Below are positions 1-63,574 of a DNA stretch of 64,000 nt, one piece after another. This DNA is from a bacterium (GTDB taxonomy: Bacteria; UBA10199; 2-02-FULL-44-16; JAAZCA01): positions 1,897 to 65,896 of the forward strand of contig JAJZQH010000003.1 in the NCBI GenBank assembly GCA_021810905.1, written 5' to 3'. The notes under the pieces were generated by a model. It worked only from the letters and a program-made list of their open reading frames with translations. It ran no database searches and had not been told where the DNA came from. The first letter of the stretch is position 1; each line of letters opens with the position of its first letter. Position numbers and translations under genes: made by a program.

Positions 1-3000
1 AAAAGCAGGCGAAAGAGCGCCGCAAAGAGCACCATAAAGAGGCTCGAATGATTCTCCCGTGCCAGCGCCTTTAGCTTGTGCGCCACATCCTGACTGATGA
101 CAGTTCGATATTGCGCGGTTCTCCTGTCCGCGACGTCTCCTCCCTCACTATCGTGCGGCATCGAGGGGATGAAGAGTTCCGTCTTCTGTAAGGCATCCCT
201 CCAAAAGTCGATTTCAGGCTGTATCAATCTCCTGTCGCTCAGAAATCGGCGGTGCCATTCCGAATAATCACGAAACTGAAGCGAAGGAAGACCTGGCGTA
301 AAGCGCTCGCCGCCGTGTCGAGATCGCAGCATGGCCTCGATTTCGCGCTTCAGATTGTACAAGGACCACCCGTCTCCTATAATATGATTCATCGCGAAGA
401 GGAGATCCGATCCAACATCTCCGTTCTGCACCATGACCGCCCTGAAGAGCGATGGTTCCTCCAAAGCAAAAGCCGCGTCGCCTTCCTTCGCGGCGAGTGC
501 AGCAAACTCCGTCGCTACCTTCTCCCCTCTCTCGTTGGAAAGATCGACCATCCTGAAATGCAGCCGCCCGGTCTCGTGAATCCGCTGAAATACGCAGCCA
601 TCCTCCTCTTCGAACGATGTCCGCAAGCTTTCATGCCTGCGGACGATCAGGCAAAGCAACTCTTGAAGAACATCCGCCTCCACATTGTCGTCGAGATGCA
701 TGGTAAAGACCATGTTCGACGAGGCATCAGCCGGCTCCTCGCGATATCGCCGCCAGATCCTCTTCTGCGCGATGGTAGCATCATAGCGATCACAATCAGA
801 CGCAGGACGGATGATATATCGGCTTGCTCCCTCCCGCCGATTTCTCAACATTTCCGCAAGCGAGGCGATCGTCGGATGAATATAAATCGTCCTGATCCTG
901 AGATCCGCATGGAAGATGCGGTTCACGGCATTCATAACCTGCATCGCCCGCATCGAATGACCGCCGAGATCGAAGAAATCGTCATCTATACCGACTTCCT
1001 CCACACCCAGTTCGCGCTTCCAAATCTCTATCAATTGATTTTCCAATTCATCTTGCGCGCCGCGCCCGCCAGCACGCGGTCTCGTCGCCCCCTCTCGCTC
1101 TCCAGGACGGATCGGCCCTTCACATGTCAGGGCCGCATTCAATTCGCCACACTCGCCGATCCGCAGATCCGGATAATCCAGAATCTCCATGATTATCCGT
1201 TCAAAGGCCGAGACATAAGATCGGACTGTCGCCCCACTGAGTAGATTCGGGGCAAAAGCGAAGGATAAATGCAGTCCGCGCTCAACGTCATGAACGTGCA
1301 ATGCGAGCGGAAATTTCGCCGAGACGAAATCACCTTCTATTTTCTTGAATGAAGCATCCCCTATAAAGAGATGCGTAAAATCATGACTAACCTGACCGAA
1401 CATGACATCAAAGAGCTGCGCATGAGTGGATATTCCGTTCGCGTAAAGCCGGCCGACGAGATATTCAAACTGATACTCAGACCGATCATATCCTTCGAGG
1501 ATCACACCTCGCACACGGCGCATGAACTCACGCCATGTCAGATTCGAGCACATACAAAATCGCAGGGGTAACGTGTTGACGAACAGGCCGACCACTCGAT
1601 CGAACTCCGCGTTTTTACGATCCGTGAAGGGCATGCCGATGGTCACGTCCTTGCCGCCCGCAGCCCTCGAAAGGAGGACCGTCAGCGCCATCATCAATAC
1701 CATGTAGGTCGTCGCAGATTCCTCCTGTGCGAATCGCAGAAGACGCTCCGCGATACCCGAATCGAGATCGAGGGCGATGGACTCTTCTACGCAATCGAAC
1801 GATGAGAGTTGATCCCCCAGGATTGGAAGGGATTTTGTCTTCTCAATATCGCGGCATCGTTCTGACCAATATGCCTCATGCGCGTGTTTTACCGTGCTCT
1901 CGCGCAACCGCTGATGTTCCGAAAAATCTCTATATTGAAATACAGTCTCTGGGAGGATCTTTCCTCGATAGAGCGCATCCAGATCGTGAAAAAGGACGTG
2001 AGCGGACCGATCATCGAAGATGATATGATGCACGTCCATCGCGAGCACCTTCCTCCCGTCATCATATTCGACCAGGGCAAACCTCAAAAGAGGTGCCCTT
2101 TCCAGGCAAAAGGGACGGACGAACCGTTGCAGGGCACGCGTTTCACCATCGATTCGGTCGATTCGAAATGGAACAGATCGATGAATCCGCTGAAGCATGT
2201 TCCCATGCGCCACCTCGAAGGATGTCCTCAACGACTCATGGCGTTCGATCAGCGCCAGCACCGATGATTCGAGTTTCGGTACGTCGATATCGCCCAATAT
2301 CTCGTAAAAGAGAGGGATGTTATATGCGGTACTCTCCGGATGAAGTTGCTGCAGCAGGTAGAATCGGCGCTGAGACGATGACATTTCATAGCTATCGCGG
2401 GACTCGGTTCGATTGATTTCCGAAGTTGTCAAGACGCCATCGGCCGGAATTTTTCGAGCTAATTCCGCAATGCACGGATGTTCGAAGATATCGCCTATGG
2501 AAATCTCGGCGCCGAATTCGTTTCTGACGCGATCAACGATGCGAAGCGCGATCAAGGAATGCCCTCCGAGGTCGAAAAAATCATCGCGGACTCCCGCGCA
2601 TTCCATGCCGAGCTCTTGTCGCCAGATATCCGCCAGACGCAACTCAACGTCACTGCGCGGGGCCTCATATTCGTCATGAAATTCGGAGACCGCTTCCGAA
2701 AGCGCCGCACGATCCACTTTCCCGTGGATCGTGCGCGGTAACCGCGCCAATGACACAAATCTAGAGGGAACCATATAGCGCGGCAACATCTCCAGCATAT
2801 GTCGCCTAAGCTGCGTAACCCTATTATCTCCGTCAAAGACGACATAGGCCGACAGCGTTTTTTCGTCATGGACCGTTTGATTCACGACAACGACGTTTTC
2901 CTTTACCCCGCGATATGCAGCGATGCACTTCTCCACCTCTCCAAGTTCGATTCTATAACCACGCACCTTTACCTGATCATCGCGGCGGCCTATAAAATCG

Positions 3001-4181
3001 ATATCGCCCTCGGGAAGCATTCGCGCAAAATCGCCCGACCGATACATCCGCTCTCCGGGAACGAAAGGATCCGCGGAAAAGCGTTCCGCCGTCAGCCGCT
3101 CGTCATGGAGATATCCGCGTGATACCGCCGCGCCTGCAATATGGATCTCGCCCACTTGTCCGTCGGAAACTCGGAGTCCATCGTCGCCCATGAGATAGAT
3201 GCGCGTATTCGCAACAGGCTTCCCGACGGGGACATTCTCTCCGGGTTTGGGGCCGGTACGATAGCGATACGTCGTAGCGCAGATCGTCGTCTCAGTCGGA
3301 CCGTATGCATTGATGACGATCATTCGCTCATGCATGTCCTGATATCTTTTGAGGACTTCATCCCGGATCGGCTCGACGCCGACGAGAAGTTTTCGAAGTC
3401 GCAGCGTATCACGGGATCCGCTCAGAATCCTCGATACGTCGTCTATAAATCCAGGCGGAATGTACGCAAAAGTGACACCCTTCTCCCGAATCACATGGGT
3501 AAACTCCTCAACATCGTAGCATTGATCGTTCTTGAGCAGGATCAAACGCGATCCATGAAAAAGCGGGAGAAATATTTCGGCAACGCTCACGTCAAACGAG
3601 ATGCTGGCGCCGGCGAGAAAGACATCCGTTTCATCCAGGCGTCCTTCATAGACATCAGCCATGTGATGAATGAAGTTGGCGAGCTGGGCATGCTCGACCA
3701 TCACGCCCTTAGGCTTTCCCGTGGAACCGGACGTATATATGACATAAGCCAAATCGGACGGATCGGGCTGTACCTCCGGTTCCTCGATATCTCCCCGGAG
3801 GAAGAGGGAATCGTCCAGATCGATCACACGATATTCGTCGCTCCATTTCCACAAACTGCAGCTGCCGGACGTCATCACCACGCTCGATCCGCTCTCCTCC
3901 AGAATGCACTCGATACGCTTTCGCGGATTGGCGGAATCGAGCGGCAGATAGGCACCACCCGCCTTCAGGGCGGAAACCATGCCCACGATCATTTCGATCG
4001 ACCGATCGGCGACGATCCCTACGATTACATCGCGCCCGACGCCAAGCCCGCGGAGCCGATTAGCGATACGGCCCGCCCTCTTGTTCAACTCTCCATAGGT
4101 AATCCCTCGATCGCCGCACTCCACCGCTACGGCCTCGGGCCGCATCCTGCCCCACCTGCCGATAGCTTCAAACACCATCAT
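1..4181 (-). CDS. Non-ribosomal peptide synthetase, multi-module (A-T-C-T-C...), 3' end beyond window start (partial)
   Basis: Manual reverse-complement translation, in codon phase with the + shadow ORFs 252..1244 and 3141..4451. Gives canonical motifs: A3 core LAYVIYTSGSTGKPKG (revcomp of ~3719-3763), NAYGPTET, GERMYRSGDFARMLPEGDIDFIGRRDDQVKVRGYRIELGEVE (~2930-3050), LPRTIHGKVDRAAL (~2700). Two PCP motifs DDFFDLGGHS (Ser codons ~2550 and ~952). Two C-domain His motifs MDVHHIIFDD (~2000-2030) and MNHIIGDGWS (~370-395). No in-phase TTA/CTA/TCA codons seen on + strand between 3 and 4214, so the - frame is open to position 1. Absent from ORF track because its stop lies outside the window. ATGATG start at 4181 overlaps the agmatinase stop (ATGA). 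Confidence 0.8.
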   Translation of the reverse strand, partial: MMVFEAIGRWGRMRPEAVAVECGDRGITYGELNKRAGRIANRLRGLGVGRDVIVGIVADRSIEMIVGMVSALKAGGAYLPLDSANPRKRIECILEESGSSVVMTSGSCSLWKWSDEYRVIDLDDSLFLRGDIEEPEVQPDPSDLAYVIYTSGSTGKPKGVMVEHAQLANFIHHMADVYEGRLDETDVFLAGASISFDVSVAEIFLPLFHGSRLILLKNDQCYDVEEFTHVIREKGVTFAYIPPGFIDDVSRILSGSRDTLRLRKLLVGVEPIRDEVLKRYQDMHERMIVINAYGPTETTICATTYRYRTGPKPGENVPVGKPVANTRIYLMGDDGLRVSDGQVGEIHIAGAAVSRGYLHDERLTAERFSADPFVPGERMYRSGDFARMLPEGDIDFIGRRDDQVKVRGYRIELGEVEKCIAAYRGVKENVVVVNQTVHDEKTLSAYVVFDGDNRVTQLRRHMLEMLPRYMVPSRFVSLARLPRTIHGKVDRAALSEAVSEFHDEYEAPRSDVELRLADIWRQELGMECAGVRDDFFDLGGHSLIALRIVDRVRNEFGAEISIGDIFEHPCIAELARKIPADGVLTTSEINRTESRDSYEMSSSQRRFYLLQQLHPESTAYNIPLFYEILGDIDVPKLESSVLALIERHESLRTSFEVAHGNMLQRIHRSVPFRIDRIDGETRALQRFVRPFCLERAPLLRFALVEYDDGRKVLAMDVHHIIFDDRSAHVLFHDLDALYRGKILPETVFQYRDFSEHQRLRESTVKHAHEAYWSERCRDIEKTKSLPILGDQLSSFDCVEESIALDLDSGIAERLLRFAQEESATTYMVLMMALTVLLSRAAGGKDVTIGMPFTDRKNAEFDRVVGLFVNTLPLRFCMCSNLTWREFMRRVRGVILEGYDRSEYQFEYLVGRLYANGISTHAQLFDVMFGQVSHDFTHLFIGDASFKKIEGDFVSAKFPLALHVHDVERGLHLSFAFAPNLLSGATVRSYVSAFERIIMEILDYPDLRIGECGELNAALTCEGPIRPGEREGATRPRAGGRGAQDELENQLIEIWKRELGVEEVGIDDDFFDLGGHSMRAMQVMNAVNRIFHADLRIRTIYIHPTIASLAEMLRNRREGASRYIIRPASDCDRYDATIAQKRIWRRYREEPADASSNMVFTMHLDDNVEADVLQELLCLIVRRHESLRTSFEEEDGCVFQRIHETGRLHFRMVDLSNERGEKVATEFAALAAKEGDAAFALEEPSLFRAVMVQNGDVGSDLLFAMNHIIGDGWSLYNLKREIEAMLRSRHGGERFTPGLPSLQFRDYSEWHRRFLSDRRLIQPEIDFWRDALQKTELFIPSMPHDSEGGDVADRRTAQYRTVISQDVAHKLKALARENHSSLFMVLFAALFRLL

Positions 4182-5113
4182 AATGCGCCGCCCTTCGTGA
4201 CAGAAGTCTTCCCCTCACGATGCACGTTTGCAAAGATTTCGCCGATGATACCGAGGACTGAAGCGATGGTGATGTTGGAGACATCCAACGATGGGGCGAA
4301 TTCCACGATATCGAAGGCGCGCACTGAAATCGGAAGCGACTCGATCATCTTGAGGAGCACGCTTACCGGGATTCCGGCGGCCACGGGCGTTCCCGTTCCC
4401 GGAGCACAGGATGGATCGAGCACATCCACGTCGACCGACACATACAGATGATCGACACGGCGGGAGATATCTTCAACGCCTCGTCGAAATCGCTCCAGCG
4501 CACCAGTATCGAAGAGAAGTTCGTCTGAGGGCAGCTCGTGAATGCCCGTCCGCTTGATATACGGCATCTCCTCCTGTTCATACGCGCGCGTTCCCACCAG
4601 GAGGCAGTCGGTCGGCCTGATCTCCGTCGTTTCAATCGCGCGACGCAGCGCCGATCCATGTGAGAAAGAAAAACCATGATACGTATCGAGTAGATCGGGA
4701 TGCGCGTCGAACCAGATAACACCCGTCCTCCCTCGCTTCGCCACAGCCTTGAGGATAGGATGGGTAACGGAGTGATCGCCCCCTATGGACACAAGCGTTG
4801 AATCCGTCCCGTCAAGGACGGCGGAACAGCTGCATTCTATGGCGTCGAATGTCTTCATCGCATCGAAGGTGGAAACGTCAACATCTCCAATGTCGAGGAT
4901 CCGTATTGACGACAGGTCATCGCCGCGACGGGATGTCGATTTCAACCTCCCAGTCATGGATCGCACTCGCCCGGGCGCAAAAGCGGCGCCACGCTGGCCG
5001 CCGGCTCCTCCGTCGAATGGTATCCCGAGGATGAGCACGTCGGCATCGCCAGGGGAATTCGCTTTTGTCCCCACTCCGTTCCATGCGCCATATCCTTCGG
5101 ATTTTAAAAACAT
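4178..5113 (-). CDS. Agmatinase/arginase-family ureohydrolase
   Basis: ORF 4178..5206 trimmed to ATG at 5113 preceded by GGAGGAATGTT. Ureohydrolase motifs SIGGDHSVTHP, WFDAHPDLL, VSVDVDVLDPSCAPGTGTP. Confidence 0.85.
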   Translation of the reverse strand: MFLKSEGYGAWNGVGTKANSPGDADVLILGIPFDGGAGGQRGAAFAPGRVRSMTGRLKSTSRRGDDLSSIRILDIGDVDVSTFDAMKTFDAIECSCSAVLDGTDSTLVSIGGDHSVTHPILKAVAKRGRTGVIWFDAHPDLLDTYHGFSFSHGSALRRAIETTEIRPTDCLLVGTRAYEQEEMPYIKRTGIHELPSDELLFDTGALERFRRGVEDISRRVDHLYVSVDVDVLDPSCAPGTGTPVAAGIPVSVLLKMIESLPISVRAFDIVEFAPSLDVSNITIASVLGIIGEIFANVHREGKTSVTKGGAL

Positions 5114-5238
5114 AACATTCCTCCTATTCGAGAGCCCGTAACCCCGGACATTGCATGCAGGTCGAGTGTCCCAAAAAACAGCCCCGACAAAACGCTGGCT
5201 GGTCATGCATCATCCATGGGCACACAGTGATATTGCGC

Positions 5239-5823
5239 CTAGGGAATCGGCACAACGTTGAACTGGAACTGGGTCCCATCGACGATCTTCCGTTCAATGC
5301 TGTCAAGATCGCTCACGACTGCACAATAAGACGCCAGCCAATCAAGCGCCCTCTGTTTGTCGCTGTCACGGGTGGAGACCACTCCGTCGGACGGTACGAT
5401 CACATGATAGCCCCGGAAATAAGCATCCGCCGCCGTCGTTTGCACACATATCTGCGTCTGCATACCTGTGATGACGATGGTATCGACACCCAGCACCTTA
5501 AGACGTTCGTCGAGTTTCGTCTCGAAGAACCCGCTATCCTTATTCTTCTCAACGATGATATCACGATCATCGAGGTAGTCCTGTGCTATCATTGCGCCCT
5601 TTGTACCGCGCAGGACGGGCAACACGCCGTTATGAAGCTCCGCGTGGTTGTCGTCCTCGTCATAGATCAGCTGAAGATGGACGATTGGAATATTCATCTC
5701 GCGCATTTTTTTGAGAAAGCGGATCATCGAAGGAGCGAATCGCTCGACCTGCTTGCGGCGCTCTTCATTCTTGTTAATGAGGTCATACTGCAGATCGTTG
5801 GTTAAAATTGCATATCGCGCCAT
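5239..5823 (-). CDS. Isochorismatase-family (cysteine) hydrolase
   Basis: ORF 5239..5895 trimmed to MARYAILTND start (ATG 5823, GGGGAG SD 7 nt upstream). Catalytic-Cys region VITGMQTQICVQTTA typical of the isochorismatase family. Confidence 0.75.
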   Translation of the reverse strand: MARYAILTNDLQYDLINKNEERRKQVERFAPSMIRFLKKMREMNIPIVHLQLIYDEDDNHAELHNGVLPVLRGTKGAMIAQDYLDDRDIIVEKNKDSGFFETKLDERLKVLGVDTIVITGMQTQICVQTTAADAYFRGYHVIVPSDGVVSTRDSDKQRALDWLASYCAVVSDLDSIERKIVDGTQFQFNVVPIP

Positions 5824-5878
5824 TTTGGACTCCCCTAAATATTGAACAACAAATTCGTGCACAATAGCTTCCATTCGC

Positions 5879-7294
5879 TCAGATGGACCGACCAATATTC
5901 CTCTTCATCATTGTTGAAAATCGCGAAAGTCCATCCTTCCAGATTTCGAAAATCTCCTGCTCGTCGAGATATTCTGTTCTGGTCACGGATGGCTGATCTT
6001 CTCGCCAGCTGTCAAAGTTTTCGCCAATAATCGTCAAATGATAGCGTTCGAAATTATGGTAGAGGTCGGTCCCCGGATAAGGCGTCGTGATATAGTACTC
6101 CACGATATCCGCGAGCCCCTCTTCGAGCAGCTTTTCGGCATAGGCGATCGTCCGGTAGGCGGTATCCCTCGATTCGCCAGGCAGCCCAACCATCCAGTAA
6201 AGGAGGACATTCAGCCCGGCATCCTTGGCCATTTTACAGGATGCTCTGATCTGCTCGACTCGAATTCCCTTCCGGATGAGATCGAGTAATTCCTGGTTCG
6301 CACTCTCCGCGCCGTACTTGATGAGCCGGCAATTGCCCTCATGCATCTTTCGGAGGATTCGGGGGGTCACAAGATCGCAACGCGTCTGAGCGATCCATCG
6401 AAAACCCCGGTTCCGCATCTCCATTCCAAACTCCTCCACATAGGAGGGATTCGTCGTGAATGATTCATCGCCGACATAAAGCAGATCTATGTCAAAATAT
6501 TTTCGTAGAAGTTCCGCCTGCGTTACGGTTCGCTCCATACTCTGATACAACGGTTTTCTCCCCTTCCAGATCGTGTCCGCACAATACGCACAGTTATAGG
6601 TACAGCCCCTCGACGTATAGATCCGGGCGAAAGGAATCTGACCGCGATAGATGTCGTTCGGTATGAGATGATATGCCGGCATAGGGAGACGATCGGATAT
6701 GATCGCTTCCTTGCTGAATGGATTTACATTGATCTCACCATCACGTTTCCACGAGATTCCCGGGATACCTCTAAGATCTCCGCCATCATGGAGGCACCGT
6801 AATAGATCTGGCAGGATGAATTCGCCCTCCCCTCTCACAACGATATCGATATCCTCCTCTTCCAGGCATGAGCGATCCGTATAGGACACATGTGGTCCGC
6901 CAAGAACAACGAAGACATCTCGGCCCAGCACTTTTTTGACCAATCGGGAAACGCGAACGGCAACGCTGAAACTATTGGTAAAAGGCGACATGCCAACCAC
7001 ACGAGATGTGACCTGGCTGAGTTCCCTCGCAATGGCATCATAGTCGATGTCGCATCCGGAATAAGATGTGAGATCCAGGACATCTGCGGTCAAGCCTTCG
7101 TGCTCAAGGGTTCCCCCCAACGCGGCAATCCAAAGCGGGAGCTCCTTGATGTCGTAGATCGGGGCTTTTACGAATTTTCCACCGATTCTCCGTTCAAAGA
7201 AATCCCAGTAGACATCATAAAACGCGCTCTCCTCTTTATGAATGAACGGTTTCGCGATCAGCGGAAGCTGGATAAACGTAAAATCACTGTTCAT
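5879..7294 (-). CDS. B12-binding-domain radical SAM protein (class B rSAM, putative methyltransferase)
   Basis: 471 aa. CxxxCxxC cluster motif in YTSRGCTYNCAYCAD about 230 aa in, preceded by an N-terminal Rossmann-like (cobalamin-binding type) domain. ATG at 7294 overlaps hypF stop (ATGA). Confidence 0.8.
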   Translation of the reverse strand: MNSDFTFIQLPLIAKPFIHKEESAFYDVYWDFFERRIGGKFVKAPIYDIKELPLWIAALGGTLEHEGLTADVLDLTSYSGCDIDYDAIARELSQVTSRVVGMSPFTNSFSVAVRVSRLVKKVLGRDVFVVLGGPHVSYTDRSCLEEEDIDIVVRGEGEFILPDLLRCLHDGGDLRGIPGISWKRDGEINVNPFSKEAIISDRLPMPAYHLIPNDIYRGQIPFARIYTSRGCTYNCAYCADTIWKGRKPLYQSMERTVTQAELLRKYFDIDLLYVGDESFTTNPSYVEEFGMEMRNRGFRWIAQTRCDLVTPRILRKMHEGNCRLIKYGAESANQELLDLIRKGIRVEQIRASCKMAKDAGLNVLLYWMVGLPGESRDTAYRTIAYAEKLLEEGLADIVEYYITTPYPGTDLYHNFERYHLTIIGENFDSWREDQPSVTRTEYLDEQEIFEIWKDGLSRFSTMMKRNIGRSI

Positions 7295-9630
7295 GATATT
7301 TCCTCGTCTCCAATCGATGAGCGGCCAAACTGGAGACCCGCGATGATCGCCTGTCCAAGCGACACACCGCCGTCATTGCTCGGAACCCTCGAATGCCTAT
7401 AAACGGAGAACCCGTCGTGCGTGAGAGAGCGGTAACAATGCGAGAGAAGAAATTCATTCATGAAGACACCGCCGCTCAAGACGACCTTCGCAAGCCCATG
7501 CGTGAGCCGGATGCGATGACAAACGTCTCTGACAATATCTACGATCGTTTGATGAAAACGACGGCTGATAACGCCAAGCGAGATGCCACCTCGCACGAGG
7601 AGATCCACGATCTCACGAATCATCGGCCGCATATCAATCATCCCAGAGGATGTTGATTCCATGAAGTCATAAGAGAACGATGTAAATTCATCCTCTCCGT
7701 CCGCCATGATGTATTCGAGTGCCATGGCCGCATGCCCTTCATGGGAAATTGACTCGATCACGCCGATAAGCGCGGAAACAGCATCAAACAAGCGGCCCAT
7801 GCTCGACGTTTGTGGAGAATTGATCCCTTGTTTCGCCATACGCAGAAGGAGATCCAGTTCGTCGCCCTGTCGTTCTCGGATAATCGGCAGGGGGAGTTCA
7901 CGAAGCACGTGCTCATCGTAGATCTGTGAAAGAATACCTATCGCCGTTCTATAGGGATGCTGCACAGCTTTATCTCCACCCGGAAGCGGAAAAGGCCGCA
8001 GGCAGGCAAAACGCTGAAATTGTTCATAACCTCCGACAAGGAACTCACCGCCCCAGATGCTGCCATCGGCGCCGTATCCGGCTCCATCGAAGATGACGCC
8101 GATCACGTCCTCATCCAGGCCATGCTCGCACATACATGAAGCCATATGGGCATGATGATGTTGAACCCTGACCACAGGAAGATGTTCCATTTCCTCGGCA
8201 TAGGCGCTCGTCAGAAAATCCGGATGGAGATCGCATGCTACAAGCTCAGGCGCAATATCATAGCTCGCCCTGATATGATCGATGATCTCACGGAGGAACC
8301 GGTAGATATATTGATTATTGATATTTCCTATATGTTGACTGACGAACATCCTCCTGTCCTTTGTCAGGCATATCGTGTTCTTCAGATCTGCACCGAGCGC
8401 CAACACGGAAGGAAGGGTACGATGGCACATGATCGGATGGGGGGCATATCCGCGCGCTCGGCGGAGTATCTCAACATGATGGCCATCCCCATTCGAGCCC
8501 ATACATCTGACGATCGAATCGTCGATTCTGATATGGATATTGCGGTCATGCGAAAGAAAAAAATCTGCGACGTCTTCGAGCTTCGTCAAGGCATCGTCGT
8601 CATCGCTGATGATCGGCTCATCAACCGCATTGCCGCTTGTGGCCACAAGTGCCGGAAAATGACCCCGGAGCAAGAGATAATGAAGGGGTGTGGAAGCAAG
8701 CATGACTCCGTAGCGACGGTTATCCGGGGCTACAGCCTGGCAAATGAGATCGTTCTTCTTCTTTCGGAGCAAAACGATGGGACGTTGTGGGGAAGCAAGC
8801 AACTGCCGTTCATCCTCCGAAACATGCGCAAAACAACGTACCTTGTCGATTTCGTCGGACATCATCGCAAAAGGCTTGAGGCTGCGCCGCTTCCTCCTGC
8901 GCAACTCGTTGACGGCGTCTTCCTGCGACGGATCAACCATTAAATGATAGCCGCCTAGCCCCTTGACGGCGATAATTAACCCTTGCCGCAGAAAATTCAC
9001 GGTTTCAAGGATGGGATCGCGGGTATCTACCGGCTCGCCATCTCGCCGCTTGAGAAAGAGCTGCGGTCCGCACTTCCAGCACGCATTGGGCTCTGCGTGA
9101 AATCGTCGATCCGACATATCCTCATATTCATCCATGCATTCCTCGCACATCCGGAACACATGCATCGTCGTATTGCACCGATCGTAGGGAATGTCCTTGA
9201 TGATGGAGTATCGAGGCCCACAATTCGTGCAGTTGATGAAAGGGTAACGATGCCGCCGGTCGGCGGGGTCGAAGAGTTCAGACAAACACTCGGAACAGAT
9301 GCTGGCGTCGGGAGAGATGAGTGTTTCGCGTGAGGCATCTTGCCTGCTCTCCAGGATGCGAAACTCCTTATGGAGGCCAGTCGCCTTTTCGACTGAGATG
9401 AGCTTGATCTCATCAACGACGGCCATGGACGGCGCATCGAATTTGAGCTCCTGAATGAATTTCGCGCTTTCCTCCTGCGGCCCTTCAATTTCGACAACCA
9501 CGCCCCGTGAATTGTTGAGGACCCATCCGCGAAGATCGTATTTCTTGGCGACGCGATAGACAAAGGGCCTGAATCCTACTCCCTGTACGATCCCGCTGAT
9601 CAGATATCGGCGCACTTCAAACATGGCCAT
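7291..9630 (-). CDS. hypF: Carbamoyltransferase HypF (acylphosphatase + two Zn fingers + YrdC + Kae1-like domains)
   Basis: 779 aa. N-terminal acylphosphatase motif VQGVGFRPFVYRVA. Two CxxC-x18-CxxC zinc fingers (CSECL...CTNCGPRYS and CEECMDE...CWKCGPQL). YrdC-like and Kae1/HypF C-terminal regions. GGAGG SD upstream of ATG 9630. Confidence 0.85.
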   Translation of the reverse strand: MAMFEVRRYLISGIVQGVGFRPFVYRVAKKYDLRGWVLNNSRGVVVEIEGPQEESAKFIQELKFDAPSMAVVDEIKLISVEKATGLHKEFRILESRQDASRETLISPDASICSECLSELFDPADRRHRYPFINCTNCGPRYSIIKDIPYDRCNTTMHVFRMCEECMDEYEDMSDRRFHAEPNACWKCGPQLFLKRRDGEPVDTRDPILETVNFLRQGLIIAVKGLGGYHLMVDPSQEDAVNELRRRKRRSLKPFAMMSDEIDKVRCFAHVSEDERQLLASPQRPIVLLRKKKNDLICQAVAPDNRRYGVMLASTPLHYLLLRGHFPALVATSGNAVDEPIISDDDDALTKLEDVADFFLSHDRNIHIRIDDSIVRCMGSNGDGHHVEILRRARGYAPHPIMCHRTLPSVLALGADLKNTICLTKDRRMFVSQHIGNINNQYIYRFLREIIDHIRASYDIAPELVACDLHPDFLTSAYAEEMEHLPVVRVQHHHAHMASCMCEHGLDEDVIGVIFDGAGYGADGSIWGGEFLVGGYEQFQRFACLRPFPLPGGDKAVQHPYRTAIGILSQIYDEHVLRELPLPIIRERQGDELDLLLRMAKQGINSPQTSSMGRLFDAVSALIGVIESISHEGHAAMALEYIMADGEDEFTSFSYDFMESTSSGMIDMRPMIREIVDLLVRGGISLGVISRRFHQTIVDIVRDVCHRIRLTHGLAKVVLSGGVFMNEFLLSHCYRSLTHDGFSVYRHSRVPSNDGGVSLGQAIIAGLQFGRSSIGDEEIS

Positions 9631-9652
9631 TTGCGCCTCCGCAATAACGTAT

Positions 9653-10675
9653 TCAGCATAGTCTCGGAAGTTCAGCCCCCTGCAGCAACTGGACGATTTT
9701 TTCCTCCCCGCCTTCGCCGCACATCACGACGTGGCAATCATCACATTCTAACACTTTACCGATGACCGATGCGTGTTCCCCATATCGATGCCGACGGAGC
9801 GTTTCGACAATCCCCTTGCTCGCTCCGGAGGAAGCGAAGATGCAGACATTCCCTTCATTGGCGAGGTAGAGAGGATTTACGCCCAGCATGTCCGCGGCCA
9901 TAACGGTCTCATGCAGGATGGGAAGCCGCACCTGTTCGATGCGCACGCCGAACCCCCCTAGCTGCGAGATCTCGTTTAAGAGCGTTCCCAACCCGCCACG
10001 CGTGATATCGCGCATGCAATGAATACGATTCCCAAACTCTTTCAGCACACCCGCAATCATATCGTTGAGTGGAGCGCAGTCGCTTTGAATCCGCCGTTCG
10101 AACCCCAACCCTTCACGAATTGAAAGTATATGGATGCTGTGATTGCCGAGCTGTCCGGAGATGATGACATCGTCGCCTGGCCGAATGGACGATATCGAAA
10201 GATGTATATCATTAGGCTGAAAAATACCGATGCCGGATGTGTTGATAAAAATCTTGTCGACCTCGCCGCGTTTGACGACCTTCGTATCCCCGGCAACGAT
10301 ATACACTTCCGCCTCCAGTGCCGCGTCACGGATGGAATGCAGGATCTGTTCGAAATCCGAAAGCGGGAAGCCCTCCTCCAGGACGAAGGCGAGCGTCAGG
10401 TACAGCGGCTTGGCGCCGCTAACAGCCAGGTCGTTCACCGTGCCGCAAACGGCGAGCTTACCAATATTCCCGCCGTGAAAAAAAATCGGATCCAGAACAA
10501 AAGAATCGGTGGTGATAGCAATGCGATCGGCCTTCCACTCGAGTACGGTGCTGTCCTCCATCTGGCCTCGGTGGGTCTCACCGAGGCATCGCACGATGAC
10601 ATCTCTGATGAGATCCCCACTCAACTTGCCACCGGTTCCGTGATCGAGCACAATGCGATCTGACAGATAATTCAT
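9653..10675 (-). CDS. hypE: Hydrogenase maturation protein HypE (PurM-like carbamoyl dehydratase)
   Basis: N-terminal VLDHGTGGKLS. PurM-like fold. C-terminus ends ...GAELPRLC with the conserved terminal Cys that carries the thiocyanate in HypE. Track ORF begins at TTG 10693; ATG at 10675 preferred. Confidence 0.85.
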   Translation of the reverse strand: MNYLSDRIVLDHGTGGKLSGDLIRDVIVRCLGETHRGQMEDSTVLEWKADRIAITTDSFVLDPIFFHGGNIGKLAVCGTVNDLAVSGAKPLYLTLAFVLEEGFPLSDFEQILHSIRDAALEAEVYIVAGDTKVVKRGEVDKIFINTSGIGIFQPNDIHLSISSIRPGDDVIISGQLGNHSIHILSIREGLGFERRIQSDCAPLNDMIAGVLKEFGNRIHCMRDITRGGLGTLLNEISQLGGFGVRIEQVRLPILHETVMAADMLGVNPLYLANEGNVCIFASSGASKGIVETLRRHRYGEHASVIGKVLECDDCHVVMCGEGGEEKIVQLLQGAELPRLC

Positions 10676-10867
10676 TTCCAAGCCGCCTATCAATAAAAGA
10701 GCAACGATGGTGCCAAATTTCGCGAGTCACCGGCAAAGCCAGAGATTATACGGTCCGCACAAAATAAGCCCTTCGCAAACATAGTGAGCACAGTGTTACA
10801 CATGCAAAAAAAAAGCAAGGGCAATACAAATGAATTCATATCCCAAACCTTACAGGTCGAAAAGTTA

Positions 10868-10913
10868 ACCGCGCTCAAAAATGAGAGAACGGGAGGGGAC
10901 GTCCCGTTCTCTC
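10868..10913 (-). terminator. Rho-independent terminator hairpin (12-bp stem GAGAGAACGGGA/TCCCGTTCTCTC, 7-nt loop) followed by U-run on - strand
   Basis: Perfect inverted repeat 10883-10894/10902-10913. A-run 10876-10880 on + strand gives a U-tract downstream on the - strand. Lies 3' of small ORF 10935..11228 and upstream of hypE. Confidence 0.5.
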
Positions 10914-10934
10914 AGGTTGAACTGCTTCGAAAAC

Positions 10935-11228
10935 CTATGCCTCTTTAGGCGATCTGTGATAGCGATTCTTACGCTTGCCATCGCGTTGATTGAGCTCATG
11001 ATATATGAAAGTGGACAACGTCTTGATGACTCTCTCTTCCAGGGGGAGGAGATTCTCTCGCGCCAGCTCTCTCTTCCACCTCTTCGATATGCCGCGAAGA
11101 AAGAGGACGATGCGCTCCACCGTGCGGCCGTCCAGGTGTCCGATGCGGACGTCGGCCTTCTGAATCCTGTTATGGTCAAATCTCAGAGGCCTGAAATCAG
11201 CATTCAAGCGCTTCAAGAACGCCTGCAT
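10935..11228 (-). CDS. Hypothetical small protein (97 aa)
   Basis: ORF between lysE-like gene and hypE on same strand. No recognisable motif. Followed by terminator hairpin. Confidence 0.3.
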   Translation of the reverse strand: MQAFLKRLNADFRPLRFDHNRIQKADVRIGHLDGRTVERIVLFLRGISKRWKRELARENLLPLEERVIKTLSTFIYHELNQRDGKRKNRYHRSPKEA

Positions 11229-11300
11229 GAGTCCTGATGCCTTATTCCTCCTGGTCTCATCTTTCGGTAGATGGAAATCGTCCAGGGGCTCGTCTTTCTT

Positions 11301-11939
11301 CTATCGGAAATAGGATGCGATCAACGAGGCTGCGATGAAGGCCATGATGCACCCGATGATGATATCCAGCCACCTCCATACGACGGCTCTCTTCAAGATG
11401 GAAGAGAGAAGGTGCGAGAAGAGCGCCAACGCGGAAAACCAGAGGAGTTCCGCCAGAAAAATGCCGAGGAGAAAGAAGGGCCTTTGAGGGAGAGATAATT
11501 GCCCGCCGACGCTGCCGATCAGGACGATGTTGTCCAACAGCGCATGCGGATTTAACCAGGAGAAGGCGAGAGTCGAGGCGACGATCTTTCCCAACGTAGG
11601 ACCGTTCGGCATGCCTCCGTTTGCGTTGAGGACTTTCGGTCTGATCGCCGACTTGAAGGAGAGGAATCCGTAATACAGGAGAAACAGGGCTCCTCCCCAA
11701 AGGGCGACGTTTTTCACCGTGGGCGAACGGGAAATGAAGAACCCCACGCCGTAGACCCCGGCCACGGCGAGGGAGACGTTCAGGATGATCGAGAGGGCGG
11801 CGATCGTCAGGACGTGTTGACGTTGCAGCCCCTGCCGCAGGACGAACGCATTCTGCGCGCCGATGGCAACGATGAGGCCGAGATTGAGGGCCAGTCCCTG
11901 GGAGAGAGGAGTGAGCGAGCAATCCATCAAGTTCATCAT
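11301..11939 (-). CDS. LysE/ArgO-family amino-acid exporter
   Basis: 212 aa. Six predicted TM helices. LysE-type translocator signature region LNLGLIVAIGAQNAFVLRQGL. Confidence 0.8.
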   Translation of the reverse strand: MMNLMDCSLTPLSQGLALNLGLIVAIGAQNAFVLRQGLQRQHVLTIAALSIILNVSLAVAGVYGVGFFISRSPTVKNVALWGGALFLLYYGFLSFKSAIRPKVLNANGGMPNGPTLGKIVASTLAFSWLNPHALLDNIVLIGSVGGQLSLPQRPFFLLGIFLAELLWFSALALFSHLLSSILKRAVVWRWLDIIIGCIMAFIAASLIASYFR

Positions 11940-11996
11940 AAGCGTATTTTCGAATTTTTCAATATCCGTTCCTTATGGTTCTACTACAATGAATCC

Positions 11997-12872
11997 ATGA
12001 GATACCTCTACGTGATTCTTCTGTTCGCTTTTCTGGTGGCTCCGCTCGCGTCCTGCGGTTCGAGTACGACAACGGTTTTTGATTTGAGAATGGCGCAGAC
12101 GCTGCAGCAATCGCTGGATCGCTCGGTGAGCGAGCTCAACATCCCGGGCGCGGTCATGGCGGTACGCGCGCCCGACGGGTCGATCTGGTCCGGCGCCAGC
12201 GGCTACGCAACGCTCCCCAACTCTGCTCAACCTTCCGGCGTGCGCATGACGACCGACATGCACCTGCGCATTGCCAGCATGATCAAGTCTTTCACTGCCA
12301 CGATGATCCTCCAGCTCGTGGACGAGGGGAAGCTCACGCTCGACGAGACGCTGGATCAGGTCATGGCGCAGTGGTTCGCGCCCGGCGTCATCGACTTCGC
12401 GATACCCTACAGCGACGCCATCACGATCAGGCACCTGCTCGAGATGCGCAGCGGCATGCCGAATTATTCCAATACGCCGGCCTTCTTAGCCCTGCTCGCG
12501 CAGCAGCCGCCGCAGCCGGTGGAAGCGAAGGAGCTCATCCGCATGAGCGTGCAGAGCGCCAATCCTGCTCCATATCCGCCGGACACTCGTATGGAATACT
12601 GCAACACCAACTACATCGTGCTCGGGATGATCGTCGAACAGGTCACGGGCAACCCCTACGCCGTTGAATGGCATCGTCGTCATCACCAACGGCGAACGGG
12701 GCGCACATCCAGAAGCCGGCCGTCACCCCGCACGCTCGATCTTCTGGAACGCGGTCCGGGACGCGGGCATTTATTTGCCATGAGAGCGCATGCGCCTGCT
12801 CAGCATTTTGAGCGAGCGCTTCAATTCGTCGCTGATCTCAACCGGATGAAGACCTGCTTCATTCCCGGATAG
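11997..12872 (+). CDS. Serine hydrolase, beta-lactamase/DD-peptidase-like lipoprotein (possible C-terminal frameshift)
   Basis: Track ORF 11814..12872 trimmed to ATG 11997 (MRYLYVILLFAFLVAPLASCGSS, lipobox LASC). SxxK motif SMIKSF. YxN motif YCNTNY. C-terminal 60 aa are R-rich and atypical. Confidence 0.6.
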   Translation: MRYLYVILLFAFLVAPLASCGSSTTTVFDLRMAQTLQQSLDRSVSELNIPGAVMAVRAPDGSIWSGASGYATLPNSAQPSGVRMTTDMHLRIASMIKSFTATMILQLVDEGKLTLDETLDQVMAQWFAPGVIDFAIPYSDAITIRHLLEMRSGMPNYSNTPAFLALLAQQPPQPVEAKELIRMSVQSANPAPYPPDTRMEYCNTNYIVLGMIVEQVTGNPYAVEWHRRHHQRRTGRTSRSRPSPRTLDLLERGPGRGHLFAMRAHAPAQHFERALQFVADLNRMKTCFIPG

Positions 12873-13805
12873 AGCACCTTGGAGGGCGAGAGCTTCATGC
12901 GCGCGCTGCCCGCGTAATCAACGAGCTTATATGCCATGTCCAGATGCGGGGCATCCGCGGACGTTGAAAACTTCGTGCCCACTCCGAATCCGTCGATCGG
13001 CGCGCCGCGGTCGAGCAATCTTTTGATCTCATATTCGTCGAGGCTGCTGGAGGCGAAGATCTTCACGTTTCTGAGGCCAGCGGCGTCAAGCCGTTCCCTC
13101 GCCGCCTTGGAGAGCGAGAGCAGATTGCCGGAGTCGAGCCGGATGGCATTGATGCGGAAACGTCGTCCGAGCCTTCGGCTCAGTTCGACCACCTTTTCCA
13201 CGCCGCCAATTGTGTCGTAGGTATCGACCAGGATCGTAGAGCCTGGATAGAGACGCGCGAATCGCTCAAAGGCTTCCAGTTCATCGTCGTGCGCCTGGAT
13301 GTAGCTGTGAGCCATGGTCCCGAAGAGCGGAATGCCGAAGATTTTTGACGCGAGCACGTTCGATGTACCGGCGAAACCAGCGAGATAGCCGCTCCTGGCG
13401 GCAAGCAACCCCGCCTCAATTCCGTGCGCGCGCCTCGATCCGAAATCTACGACCGCTCTGCCCAAAGCCGCGCGGACGATGCGCGAGGCCTTTGTGGCGA
13501 TCGCGCTCTGAAAATGGATCTGGTTATGGTGGCGCCGAGGATGAGATGGACCTCAAATCCTTCGCGCAGGCCGTCGAGAACGGTCTCGAATACGCAGACC
13601 TCGAGCACCAGCCCGCAGACCCATAGCCGAGCGACGCCAGCCTTGCGCAGATCAGCGGCGAGAGGGCATCACGTAAAAGCGGAATATTCCTCAATATCGC
13701 TCGCAGCGGCCTTGAGGAGGATCGTGGCGTCGTCAGGGAGATCGACGATGATGAGCGCGTCCGATGTGGCGTGAGTTCTGGAATGAGCCGAGTCATAAAG
13801 TTCAA
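12821..13805 (-). pseudogene. pncB: Nicotinate phosphoribosyltransferase (NAPRT, pncB-like) disrupted by frameshift
   Basis: C-terminal part ORF 12821..13465 has NAPRT motifs VVDFGSRRAHG and GTMAHSY. N-terminal continuation NQIHFQSAIATKASRIVRAAL is in the same frame but cut by TGA near 13540. Upstream NAPRT-like sequence continues in another frame. One missing A in the run around 13512-13516 would restore GATI-NQIHFQ. Confidence 0.55.
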
Positions 13806-13809
13806 TCAA

Positions 13810-14535
13810 TCACCTTGGCGTGAACTGCGAAAGATCGTAGATGCCGAGGCGCTTTTCGATCTCCACTACACGCCCCACTATCCTTTCAAAACCGTTCTCG
13901 CCAAAGAGCGCGTGTTCTTTGTCTTCGAATGCATCGCCCATCTGTTCGTATTCCTCTGCAGTTACTATCGTGCGCAGCGCTGGGAAGAGCACGGTGTCCT
14001 CGCGCGCCTCATGCGGACCATACATACGGATGAACTGATCGAGGGCCTGGGCCAAGGCGCGGCGATCTTGCGGCGCCTTCATCGCACGCGCGTCGGAAAG
14101 CTTGAGGGCAATGTCGGTAAGCTTGCGCCCGGCGCGATGCTGCGCGATCAACACGCCGACGAGATCCACGAGCTTGCCGGCCTTCAGAAATCGAGGGAAG
14201 AGGTGCTCTTCCTCTAGTCTCTCATGATAATCCTCTATGAATGAACGAATGATACCCGCGGCATCAGCGACTGCCGTGGGTTGAAGCTCCTCTCCGGCAT
14301 TGATACGGCGGATCGCCTCTCCGTAGATGAGCAGGATGCGCTTGAGCACTCCATGCTCCCTCATGAGATCCTCAGCCGGCGAGATTTCCTGCAAAGCGTT
14401 CGGACACGGCGATTGCTTCTGCTGGCCCGCCAGTTGCCGTGGCGACGCCGCGCAGACGGCCACTAGAAACGTTGCGCACATCGCCACTGCGGCCTGCACA
14501 AAGATCTTCCGACGTATTTTTTTCAGTCCGCGCAT
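13810..14535 (-). CDS. Secreted hemerythrin-like (HHE cation-binding domain) protein
   Basis: Signal peptide. Repeated H...E motifs: LMREHGVL, EDYHERLEEEHLFP, IAQHRAG, GPHEAREDTVLFP. Confidence 0.7.
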   Translation of the reverse strand: MRGLKKIRRKIFVQAAVAMCATFLVAVCAASPRQLAGQQKQSPCPNALQEISPAEDLMREHGVLKRILLIYGEAIRRINAGEELQPTAVADAAGIIRSFIEDYHERLEEEHLFPRFLKAGKLVDLVGVLIAQHRAGRKLTDIALKLSDARAMKAPQDRRALAQALDQFIRMYGPHEAREDTVLFPALRTIVTAEEYEQMGDAFEDKEHALFGENGFERIVGRVVEIEKRLGIYDLSQFTPR

Positions 14536-39402: not shown

Positions 39403-40374
39403 TTAAGGACAGAAGGTCATGAGGAACTGCGTATTGCCGGCGCAATTGTGCAGCCCCACGACATCATCATATGAATACGCATACACGCCGCCGGTGCACA
39501 TGCTGTGTATGGCTGCCACGTATTTTGTCGCAGCCACGGGACCCGCGCGGCAGGCGCCCGGGTCGATTGGAGGAGTCGGGCAGCAGTACATCACGGCAGC
39601 GTCGCCCTGCTCGGAGAGGCCCTCGCCGTTGTATCCTGTGTTGTTGGGCCAGTTGAGTTTCTTGCACGGAGAATAGCACCCAAGCGCGGTGTCGGGACTT
39701 GCCGCGTCGAGGACCCTCAGATCCTCGTTGTTATACTCGGGATGCACATCTACCTGTCCCTGGCTTAAGTTCTCGTCGGTCGGGCAGCCGCTTAGATTGA
39801 GGTTTGTGCAGTCGATGGTATTGCAGGAAGAGCAATCCGCGTTGATGCAGGTTGAACCTCCTCCGCCGACGATGGTGACTTTGTAAGGCAAGGAATAACC
39901 GTCGACAGCGCTCGTGTCCCAAGAGGTGATCGGCGGGAGCTTCTGTGCCGGCGCAGAGGGATTCACCGCGCACTGCGTGGGATCGGCATTGGTGCAACCC
40001 CACGTGGCCTCAAATTTGGAATCAATGGGCGGGGCACAGCCTGCTGCCGGGCACGGGTCCGAGCTCTGACCCAACGAGCAGTTCTGGCTGTTGGCATCGC
40101 AACCTGTCTTGGGCCAGAAGCGCGTCGACGCAAGCCCTATATCAGGAATGTTGTAATCCACGTATCCGCCCTTGGCCAATTGAGTGACGGCGGCAGTTCC
40201 GGTGGGCATGTTCGATTGCTGGATCCAGATCGTATAAGAGCAGTTGTTGACGATTCGGAAGAGCGCGGTCTGCGTGGGAAGTCCGCCGCCGCCCCCGCCG
40301 CTGCCGCTTCCTCCTCCACAGCCGAAGCAGAACGCCAATGCGATTATAAGAGACAATGGGCGAAAAATTCTCAT
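39403..40374 (-). CDS. Thaumatin-like (PR-5/osmotin family) lipoprotein
   Basis: Lipobox FCFGCGG. Thaumatin family hallmarks: N-terminal beta-strand FRIVNNCSYTIW, multiple conserved Cys pairs, CCPTPP, GVYAYSYDDVVGLHNC, C-terminal FLMTFCP. Confidence 0.7.
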   Translation of the reverse strand: MRIFRPLSLIIALAFCFGCGGGSGSGGGGGGLPTQTALFRIVNNCSYTIWIQQSNMPTGTAAVTQLAKGGYVDYNIPDIGLASTRFWPKTGCDANSQNCSLGQSSDPCPAAGCAPPIDSKFEATWGCTNADPTQCAVNPSAPAQKLPPITSWDTSAVDGYSLPYKVTIVGGGGSTCINADCSSCNTIDCTNLNLSGCPTDENLSQGQVDVHPEYNNEDLRVLDAASPDTALGCYSPCKKLNWPNNTGYNGEGLSEQGDAAVMYCCPTPPIDPGACRAGPVAATKYVAAIHSMCTGGVYAYSYDDVVGLHNCAGNTQFLMTFCP

Positions 40375-61833: not shown

Positions 61834-62283
61834 TCACCAGAATTCTGGCTTATGAAACGGGCCGTGACGGTCCTCCAAGTTTGGTGAAAACTGAGAGACC
61901 TGAAGAACGCCTTGTCTGATCTTTTTATAAAACGTCGCATACGCGAGAAGTGTTCGGCTCGGGTGTCTATGAGGATTCAGTACGCCGACTCGTTTTCCGA
62001 GCTCCTTTGTCGTGATCCTTATGACCTCGGCAAGATCGGAATCGTTTGAGACGATGACAGCCGTATCGAATCTGTCCTTGTACGCATCGTTGAGCATGTG
62101 AACGGCAAGATTTACATCCGAACCTTTTTCCTCGGTTCGGATGACGCGGACGTATTTCGTTTTACCGCACTCCTTTTCCGCCAGCGGCATCATAACGGGA
62201 TGCGAAAGAAAGTGACCCAATATGATGGAAAGTTGAACCCGTCGATATAGACGCTTGTCCTGCACGGGGATTTGATAAAGCAA
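61834..62283 (-). CDS. NYN/LabA-like nuclease domain protein, apparently N-terminally truncated fragment
   Basis: KGSDVNLAVHMLNDAYKDRFDTAVIVSNDSDLAEVIRI matches the central/C-terminal NYN (PIN-like) block. The canonical N-terminal VFIDxxN strand is absent. Confidence 0.45.
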   Translation of the reverse strand: MLYQIPVQDKRLYRRVQLSIILGHFLSHPVMMPLAEKECGKTKYVRVIRTEEKGSDVNLAVHMLNDAYKDRFDTAVIVSNDSDLAEVIRITTKELGKRVGVLNPHRHPSRTLLAYATFYKKIRQGVLQVSQFSPNLEDRHGPFHKPEFW

Positions 62284-63572: not shown

Positions 63573-63574
63573 GT

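Follow-up and report, generated by a model that had tools for sequence, protein, structure and literature searches.

Gene content of the locus

We analysed a 64 000 nt stretch of contig JAJZQH010000003.1 (assembly GCA_021810905.1, positions 1897 to 65 896), hereafter called the window, in which paralogues of the [NiFe]-hydrogenase maturation proteins HypE and HypF are encoded beside a non-ribosomal peptide synthetase (NRPS). The window is identical in sequence to positions 2221-66220 of contig DAHVYM010000026.1 in GCA_027327785.1. The genes of interest form a single, tightly packed minus-strand operon in the order hypE, hypF, a B12-binding radical S-adenosylmethionine (SAM) enzyme, an isochorismatase-family cysteine hydrolase (termed ISO here), an arginase-like protein and the NRPS. 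HypE (9653..10675, 340 aa) is a PurM-like, ATP-dependent dehydratase, and HypF (7291..9630, 779 aa) is a carbamoyltransferase with acylphosphatase, zinc-finger, YrdC-like and Kae1-like parts. They are followed by the radical SAM enzyme (5879..7294, 471 aa; PF02310 and PF04055), ISO (5239..5823, 194 aa; PF00857), the arginase/ureohydrolase-family, agmatinase-like protein (4178..5113, 311 aa; PF00491, 217 bits) and an NRPS of Pfam-defined A-T-C-T-C organization (adenylation, A; thiolation, T; condensation, C). The NRPS gene (1..4181) is cut by the start of the window, and its full-length product has 1560 aa (locus L001, 15450-20132).

A preliminary description of the window had reported a complete HypF and HypE at 7291-10693. 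The lower bound was upheld, whereas the upper bound was 18 nt too generous: the longest hypE open reading frame (ORF) opens at TTG 10693, but the deposited annotation starts at ATG 10675, and the ATG is the preferred start. The overlapping ATGA by which the description coupled hypF to the radical SAM gene was found at 7291-7294, where the hypF stop meets the radical SAM start. Its statement that hydrogenase context and HypC/HypD are missing was also borne out. A tblastn search of the 64 kb with references from Cupriavidus necator and Parabacteroides gave no match to HypA/B/C/D, to either [NiFe] subunit (large or small) or to a maturation protease, although very divergent hydrogenase classes could escape such a search. 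The Pfam content of the window genes included no hydrogenase or hypA/B/C/D domains.

HypE and HypF appear catalytically intact

HypF contains the Pfam domains Acylphosphatase, two zf-HYPF, Sua5/YrdC, HypF_C and HypF_C_2, in agreement with the domain composition given previously. It scored 798 bits against the equivalog hidden Markov model (HMM) TIGR00143, above the cutoff of 466, and aligned end to end with HypF of PDB 3vth (E = 2e-215). The protein keeps two CxxC-x18-CxxC fingers, the QHHHAH metal site, the acylphosphatase loop and the NDGG motif. These catalytic and metal motifs are conserved in 58-61 of 61 HypF proteins from ISO-linked loci, and the eight zinc-finger cysteines and the HHHAH site are kept in all 61.

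HypE scored 421 bits on TIGR02124 (cutoff 252), carries the N- and C-terminal AIRS domains (PF00586 and PF02769) and aligned end to end with HypE of PDB 3vti, chain C (E = 2e-79). The 3' codons of hypE, GAA CTT CCG AGA CTA TGC TGA, encode ELPRLC followed by the stop, so that cysteine is the terminal residue. Across the ISO-linked and canonical clades 68 HypE columns are at least 96 % identical, the terminal cysteine included, and these near-invariant shared columns indicate that the catalytic core of HypE has been retained. Judged by their sequences, both proteins are thus catalytically intact with every catalytic motif kept, as had been proposed.

In domain architecture, catalytic motifs, the PurM-like HypE and the C-terminal PRxC cysteine, the pair resembles HypF and HypE of [NiFe]-hydrogenase maturation as represented by E. 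coli, T. kodakarensis and the Caldanaerobacter complex 3VTI. It differs from these canonical proteins in having no HypA/B/C/D or hydrogenase nearby, in belonging to a distinct HypE clade and a mostly distinct HypF clade, and in its constant partner, which is ISO. The setting also differs, as the ISO-linked genes lie in operons with NRPS, ATP-grasp and aminotransferase genes.

A conserved ISO-HypE-HypF module

The module of ISO, HypE and HypF was found in >100 loci from Firmicutes, Actinobacteria, Proteobacteria, candidate-phyla (CPR) lineages and plasmids, and we regard its conservation as almost certain. Orthologues of ISO with 50-66 % identity adjoin HypE/HypF in >90 loci, and ISO immediately precedes hypE, in the same orientation, in 71 of 78 loci. 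A metagenome scan was seeded by alignment of the ISO protein alone, and co-occurrence was scored in loci with at least 4 kb on both sides; HypE was present in 29/29 and HypF in 27/29 of these loci. The closest HypE homologues (63-65 % identity) show the order isochorismatase-HypE-HypF throughout; other hyp genes and hydrogenase genes are absent from the surrounding 10 kb, and the neighbours vary, among them a class-III aminotransferase, an NRPS C-A-T protein and a molybdopterin oxidoreductase. Homologues of about 60 % identity on megabase contigs keep the same order. Gene calls at the loci were based on tblastn; a crude ORF caller had produced a spurious antisense 'cluster 3' over hypE in high-GC loci.

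A scan of species-representative genomes recovered the triad from Bacillus albus, Cohnella faecalis, Amycolatopsis, Psychromonas, a Saccharibacteria genome and a Deltaproteobacteria metagenome-assembled genome that, like the window, adds arginase and NRPS genes. The same scan found a Paceibacterota contig that is too short to show hypF. Annotated plasmid examples come from Rhizobium leguminosarum, Citrobacter freundii, Streptomyces clavuligerus, Streptomyces sp. NBC_01361 (inside an NRPS cluster) and Paraburkholderia phymatum. The Citrobacter-type module had no megablast match in E. coli genomes. Two natural fusions, P0440 (547 aa) and P0503 (521 aa), join Isochorismatase, AIRS and AIRS_C domains in one chain, keep the catalytic cysteine motif and end in PRLC, and they constitute a Rosetta-stone link between ISO and HypE.

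The fetched ISO-linked loci contained no hypA/B/C/D genes or hydrogenase subunits, with P. phymatum (L102) as the sole exception. Plasmid pBPHY02 of this organism carries hupSL and hypABFCDE and, 15 kb away, a second ISO-hypE-hypF set, giving it two full hypE/hypF pairs. In this region (L102/L106, record positions 3757-25618, covering both sets) an ectB-like transaminase gene, a GNAT gene, ISO, hypE and hypF lie about 5 kb beyond hupS. The ISO-type HypE is 43 % identical to the canonical HypE of the same plasmid and 53 % identical to HypE of the window; the corresponding values for the ISO-type HypF are 34 % and 45 %.

One soil contig, Ga0210383_10000007 (L016/L018, 6876-11529), encodes ISO, arginase, a DUF3865 protein and HypE with a plain radical SAM gene nearby, and HypF was not detectable within ±10 kb. 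Either HypF is encoded remotely in this organism or another carbamoyl donor is used.

The preliminary description had named the B12 radical SAM enzyme as the partner of HypE and HypF. This enzyme is a real associate, encoded next to hypF or ISO in two further clusters (that of Heliomicrobium gestii and that of a metagenome contig), but it is subtype-specific, and the universal partner is ISO, which in the window lies two genes downstream of hypF.

An Rfam search of seven related loci returned tRNAs and one selenocysteine insertion sequence (SECIS) element only. The latter is a bacterial SECIS (RF01989, 84 bits) at L037 3234-3292 (+), about 7 kb upstream of an ISO-HypE-HypF-aminotransferase module, which implies a selenoprotein gene nearby.

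Phylogeny and the C-terminal signature

A neighbour-joining tree was inferred from 75 ISO-linked HypE sequences and 8 references that are hypCD-linked or structurally characterized (Cupriavidus, Parabacteroides, Paraburkholderia, Hymenobacter, Pantoea, Chondrocystis, Caldanaerobacter and Desulfovibrio). The ISO-linked sequences formed one bipartition with a bootstrap value of 72, and in 18 further replicates the split also included L014, a HypE of unknown context. Mean identity was 59 % within the ISO-linked clade and 42 % between the groups (maximum 48 %). HypE of the window was accordingly not placed among hydrogenase-linked HypE sequences; in this tree it belongs to a separate clade. HypF mostly agrees, as 59 of the 61 ISO-linked sequences fell into one clade. 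Strict HypF monophyly was not recovered (bootstrap 4), because of two long-branch outliers, L058 and L069.

The C-terminus distinguishes the two HypE groups. PRLC terminates 74/75 ISO-linked proteins and 119/120 of the nearest database homologues of HypE, whereas PRIC terminates 8/8 canonical proteins. Among the best 150 representatives of the HypE family clustered at 50 % identity, 124 end in PRIC and 11 in PRLC, the latter concentrated at the top of the ranking. Four further positions separate the ISO clade from the canonical residues given in brackets, namely L31 (F), T94 (S), A128 (T) and H182 (A). It had been suggested that PRLC is equivalent to PRIC. This is correct in so far as the terminal cysteine is kept, but PRLC is more than an equivalent, namely a near-diagnostic signature of the ISO-linked clade.

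The ISO cysteine hydrolase

The ISO subfamily is uniformly 194 aa in length, and in 65 aligned sequences the triad D10/K93/C126 and the motif GMQTQICVQTTAADA are invariant. A second cysteine, C167 (in WLxxYCA), is present in all 65. The AlphaFold2 model of ISO (predicted local distance difference test, pLDDT, 91.6) has an isochorismatase-like hydrolase fold, and a Foldseek search with this model gave template-modelling (TM) scores of 0.72-0.83 to 3hb7 chains, TrtA and N-carbamoylsarcosine amidase. The best characterized structural neighbours, biuret hydrolase (BiuH), triuret hydrolase (TrtA), N-carbamoylsarcosine amidase and RutB, share the fold and the D-K-C triad with ISO, and these relatives act on ureido/guanidino C-N compounds. 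ISO is, however, only 18-30 % identical to them and is set apart by its own invariant motifs QTQICVQTTAADA and WLxxYCA, its fixed length and its obligate linkage or fusion to HypE. It scored far below cutoff on every HMM of a characterized subfamily (RutB 51 vs 378, BiuH 48 vs 370 and PncA 34 vs 174 bits), and there is no curated NCBIfam model for the ISO subfamily.

A two-cysteine reductive relay between C126 and C167 was considered and judged unlikely: in the secondary structure of the model, C167 immediately precedes strand 6 and is distant from C126, which sits at the C-terminal ends of the strands, so that C167 seems remote from the active site.

Two loci also carry a degenerate, shorter isochorismatase paralogue (ISO-a) directly before hypE, at L111 6088-6552 (+) and L112 2051-2548 (-); none is present in the window. 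These copies are without the catalytic cysteine and aspartate (...GMSIETT... and ...GILFQTT...) and look like pseudo-enzymes.

Accessory genes and subtypes of the cluster

The gene set of the window (HypE, HypF, B12 radical SAM enzyme, ISO, arginase-like protein and an amide-forming enzyme) represents a conserved cluster family. In H. gestii (L111) the set comprises arginase, degenerate ISO, HypE ending in PRLC, HypF, B12 radical SAM enzyme, ISO (57 % identical to that of the window) and an ATP-grasp ligase. In the metagenome contig L112 it comprises arginase, degenerate ISO, HypE and HypF, divergent from NRPS, B12 radical SAM enzyme, ISO and a major facilitator superfamily (MFS) transporter. 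The adjacency of the radical SAM gene and ISO is kept in 3/3 loci (the window, L111 and L112). The arginase gene adjoins the degenerate ISO-a in L111 and L112, and a pairing of ISO with arginase also occurs in L008, L016/18, L020 and L100.

The radical SAM enzyme of the window has the motif CTYNCAYC at residues 231-238 (CxxxCxxC) and an N-terminal B12-binding domain, which are features of class B. No specific NCBIfam subfamily reached its cutoff with this protein, and its close homologues are a handful of sequences with 51-60 % identity, those of L111 and L112 having 57-58 %. The arginase-like protein contains the metal motifs GGDH at 111, DAHPD at 136 and SVDVDVLDP at 226, and at 162.6 bits it falls just below the cutoff of the agmatinase model TIGR01230 (174.3). 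In the NRPS, the NCBIfam adenylation domain scored 402 bits, the T-domain serines (GGHS) lie at about 541 and 1075, and the C domains carry the motifs HHIIFDD and NHIIGDG. The A-domain code DVAYLGAICK matches no substrate code that could be assigned with confidence.

A second arginase-containing subtype was seen in S. clavuligerus, the Deltaproteobacteria genome and soil contigs, where a DUF3865-like protein and a conserved hypothetical protein of 492 aa replace the radical SAM enzyme. The DUF3865-like proteins at L008 3353-4210, L016 9019-9759 and L100 8251-8967 share 49-60 % mutual identity. In aerobes, the DUF3865-like and 492-aa proteins may represent an O2-dependent counterpart of the radical SAM step. 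The known pair BchE (radical SAM, anaerobic) and AcsF (oxygenase, aerobic) perform one and the same step, and it may be speculated that the radical SAM (anaerobe) and DUF3865 (aerobe) versions of the cluster parallel this pair.

Other subtypes bring different partners. A diaminobutyrate-2-oxoglutarate transaminase family protein (TIGR00709, 520 bits vs cutoff 402) is found in at least 14 loci, and the candidate-phyla subtype has a DegT/PseC-type aminotransferase with NUDIX and DUF2797 proteins. In the enterobacterial subtype a LysR gene stands beside ISO-HypE-HypF, a HAD phosphatase and an MFS transporter, and in Streptomyces the module is carried by NRPS and ATP-grasp clusters.

Other features of the window

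A LysE-family basic amino acid exporter (11301..11939, minus strand) lies just upstream of the hypE operon. It matched PF01810 with 124 bits and TIGR00948 with 172 bits, the latter below cutoff. Between lysE and hypE there is a basic ORF of 97 aa (10935..11228, minus strand) with no family match. A strong terminator-like hairpin at 10882..10914 (minus strand; 13-bp stem followed by a TTTTT tail) divides this upstream unit from the hypE operon. The exporter is a possible export or self-protection gene and only a tentative member of the cluster. An Rfam search of window positions 1-14000 for a riboswitch clue gave no match at E <= 1. PADLOC, which searches for anti-phage systems, gave no match for ISO, HypE, HypF or the arginase-like protein and a weak match only for the radical SAM enzyme.

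The remaining genes of the window encode Kdp, Pst, porin, alkaline phosphatase, OEP, RND efflux and similar functions, and the porin, OEP and RND genes point to a Gram-negative-like host. A nicotinate phosphoribosyltransferase fragment at 12821-13465 (-) covers model positions ~150-360 of 451 only and is probably a truncated gene; a beta-lactamase-family ORF at 11814-12872 (+) abuts and overlaps it on the opposite strand. A protein of 323 aa with a Thaumatin domain (PF00314), a family that is mostly eukaryotic, is encoded at 39403-40374 (-). The GC content of positions 62001-64000 is 0.47, compared to ~0.55-0.60 elsewhere, and this segment may be foreign; an NYN-domain gene (~61.8-62.2 kb) lies just before it.

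Proposed function and alternative explanations

In hydrogenase maturation, HypF activates carbamoyl phosphate as carbamoyl-AMP and loads the carbamoyl group onto the terminal cysteine of HypE. HypE then dehydrates the carbamoyl-cysteine to Cys-S-CN at the expense of ATP, and the cyanide is taken over by HypCD and bound to iron. At the locus described here the residues for the first two steps are all retained and HypCD is missing, so the same protein-bound thiocyanate, or at least thiocarbamate, would be expected with a different acceptor. By analogy with the established HypEF mechanism, HypF would use carbamoyl phosphate to form carbamoyl-AMP and carbamoylate the PRLC cysteine of HypE, and HypE would drive the dehydration to Cys-S-CN with ATP. 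Less certainly, ISO rather than iron on HypCD would receive the cyano or carbamoyl group and transfer it to an amino-acid building block, at a primary amine or guanidine, yielding an N-cyano, ureido or guanidino-type unit. ISO is the candidate catalyst of this hand-over because it is obligatorily linked and sometimes fused to HypE, and because its family works through cysteine-bound carbamoyl-type thioesters, the species that HypE carries. An amine or guanidine nitrogen is proposed as the acceptor since the recurrent accessory enzymes (diaminobutyrate transaminase, sugar aminotransferase and arginase-family proteins) make primary amines. In the window the amine would be supplied by the arginase-like enzyme, and in other subtypes by diaminobutyrate or sugar aminotransferases. 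Tailoring of the modified unit would then fall to the B12 radical SAM enzyme and its coupling to the single-module A-T-C-T-C NRPS, with LysE as a possible exporter.

We consider it very probable that the ISO-HypE-HypF module does not serve hydrogenase maturation. That the window encodes a version of the HypF/HypE cyanylation machinery which is independent of hydrogenase and acts together with ISO, as part of a small NRPS gene cluster, is in our judgement the probable explanation, held with moderate confidence. For the transfer of a one-carbon/nitrogen unit to a small molecule through the HypE cysteine the case is evenly balanced, and N-cyanation specifically is put forward as a tentative proposal.

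Several observations weigh against this interpretation. The trees are distance-based, and the canonical anchors are just 8 HypE and 4 HypF sequences. The HypF tree is less clean than that of HypE, with L058 and L069 branching among the four canonical references, and PRLC also terminates a few more distant HypE representatives of unknown context (the 11 of the best 150 mentioned above). The P. phymatum module lies close enough to the hup genes that it may have an accessory hydrogenase role there. The A-domain code, obtained by motif anchoring with GrsA numbering, has no acidic residue for a basic side chain. ISO fits no characterized subfamily above cutoff, and it could be a relay, a hydrolase or a proofreader. 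The acceptor, the product and the precise role of ISO are themselves inferred.

A simpler chemistry would be a carbamoyl relay, in which carbamoyl rather than cyano is passed from the HypE cysteine, perhaps through a thiocarbamate on ISO Cys126, to an amine to give a ureido product, the ATP-dependent HypE step being used differently or not at all. The nearest characterized relatives of ISO process carbamoyl or ureido substrates through cysteine thioesters, carbamoylated amino acids are common in NRPS products and the partners of the module supply amines, all of which suit such a relay. We nevertheless regard it as unlikely, since a TobZ/NodU-type O/N-carbamoyltransferase would suffice without HypE, while HypE retains all the residues for ATP binding and dehydration that its canonical counterpart has (the 68 near-invariant columns). 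The maintenance of an ATP-consuming dehydratase in >100 loci implies that dehydration to S-CN matters. If cyanide is indeed formed, it might be released as free CN-/SCN- or delivered as a ligand to a metalloprotein other than hydrogenase, with ISO as a releasing or reducing factor in place of HypCD. Delivery of CN- to a metal is the sole established output of HypEF, and it is described along with the PRIC motif in PMC12130793. The second invariant cysteine of ISO and the very diverse contexts, including minimal LysR / ISO-HypE-HypF-HAD-MFS operons, would also accord with a generic small product. On the other side, no recurrent metalloprotein partner was seen among the neighbours, the predicted separation of C167 from C126 makes a reductive relay implausible, and NRPS/ATP-grasp clusters with amine-forming enzymes fit the modification of a substrate better. 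Release or metal delivery of cyanide is thus, in our view, improbable.

The most conservative explanation is that these are ordinary hydrogenase maturation genes, remote from the hydrogenase and hypCD genes of the genome, beside NRPS genes by coincidence. The equivalog HMMs do name the pair HypE and HypF, hyp genes are sometimes scattered, and the absence of hydrogenase in the source organism holds for the 64-kb window, to which the search was confined. Against this stand the separate HypE clade with its own C-terminal signature, the near-obligatory linkage to ISO and the ISO-HypE fusions, and the coexistence of the module with a complete canonical hyp set in P. phymatum. The set of HypEF, ISO, arginase, radical SAM enzyme and ligase is, moreover, conserved in unrelated organisms, and hypF is translationally coupled to the radical SAM gene. 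This explanation is consequently very improbable.

Extended beyond the window, the hydrogenase-independent cyanylation proposal suggests that ISO-HypE-HypF could be a general cyanating or amidinating system, placing a C≡N-derived unit on amines of amino acids, nucleotide sugars and NRPS building blocks; we offer this as a possibility and would not yet call it probable. The unit would be N-cyano, guanidino or cyclic-guanidine, or nitrile, derived from carbamoyl phosphate through protein-bound thiocyanate. The product of the cluster in the window would then be a modified peptide, and its pathway would exist in two versions, an anaerobic one with the B12 radical SAM enzyme, as in the window, and an aerobic one with a DUF3865 protein.

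Relation to known systems and significance

In the searchable full-text literature, which does not cover paywalled work, no characterization of ISO-HypE-HypF was found, apart from one brief remark; hypE and hypF are not mentioned in PMC7285500. The remark is in the decRiPPter study (PMC7794033), which noted, in Streptomyces, hypE and hypF homologues accompanied by an ATP-grasp gene but by none of the remaining hyp genes, 'suggesting … a novel function'. It was made in passing, without ISO linkage, phylogeny, distribution or mechanism. These orphan genes are probably of the same locus type as our S. clavuligerus example, in which isochorismatase, arginase, ATP-grasp and MFS genes are divergent from DUF3865, hypE and hypF. 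Compared to that type, the window has an NRPS and a B12 radical SAM enzyme where ATP-grasp and DUF3865 stand.

Carbamoyl phosphate/carbamoyl-AMP chemistry is known in biosynthetic clusters from carbamoyltransferases of the TobZ/NodU/CmcH type, which are homologous to the C-terminal half of HypF. These YrdC-Kae1 enzymes modify the small molecule itself, and they lack zinc fingers, an acylphosphatase domain and a HypE-type cysteine carrier/dehydratase. The genes described here encode known enzymes with a new partner and, probably, a biological role that is also new.

In textbooks, HypE and HypF have the single purpose of making the cyanide ligands of [NiFe]-hydrogenases. Our study points to a large sister clade with different properties, to which the 120 nearest HypE homologues all belong and whose members come from many phyla and from plasmids. 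Public annotation labels the ISO-type genes as hydrogenase expression/formation or maturation proteins and so mispredicts hydrogen metabolism, and genome-mining tools miss the module as biosynthetic. The module is readily testable because cultured hosts exist, among them C. faecalis, B. albus, S. clavuligerus, C. freundii, H. gestii, R. leguminosarum and P. phymatum.

If correct, the hydrogenase-independent function proposed here would give the HypE/HypF machinery a second physiological role and would represent new enzymology, with protein-thiocyanate or thiocarbamate chemistry in small-molecule biosynthesis. Should the general cyanating system also prove true, it would constitute a previously unrecognized route to N-cyano, guanidino and nitrile groups in many bacterial phyla.

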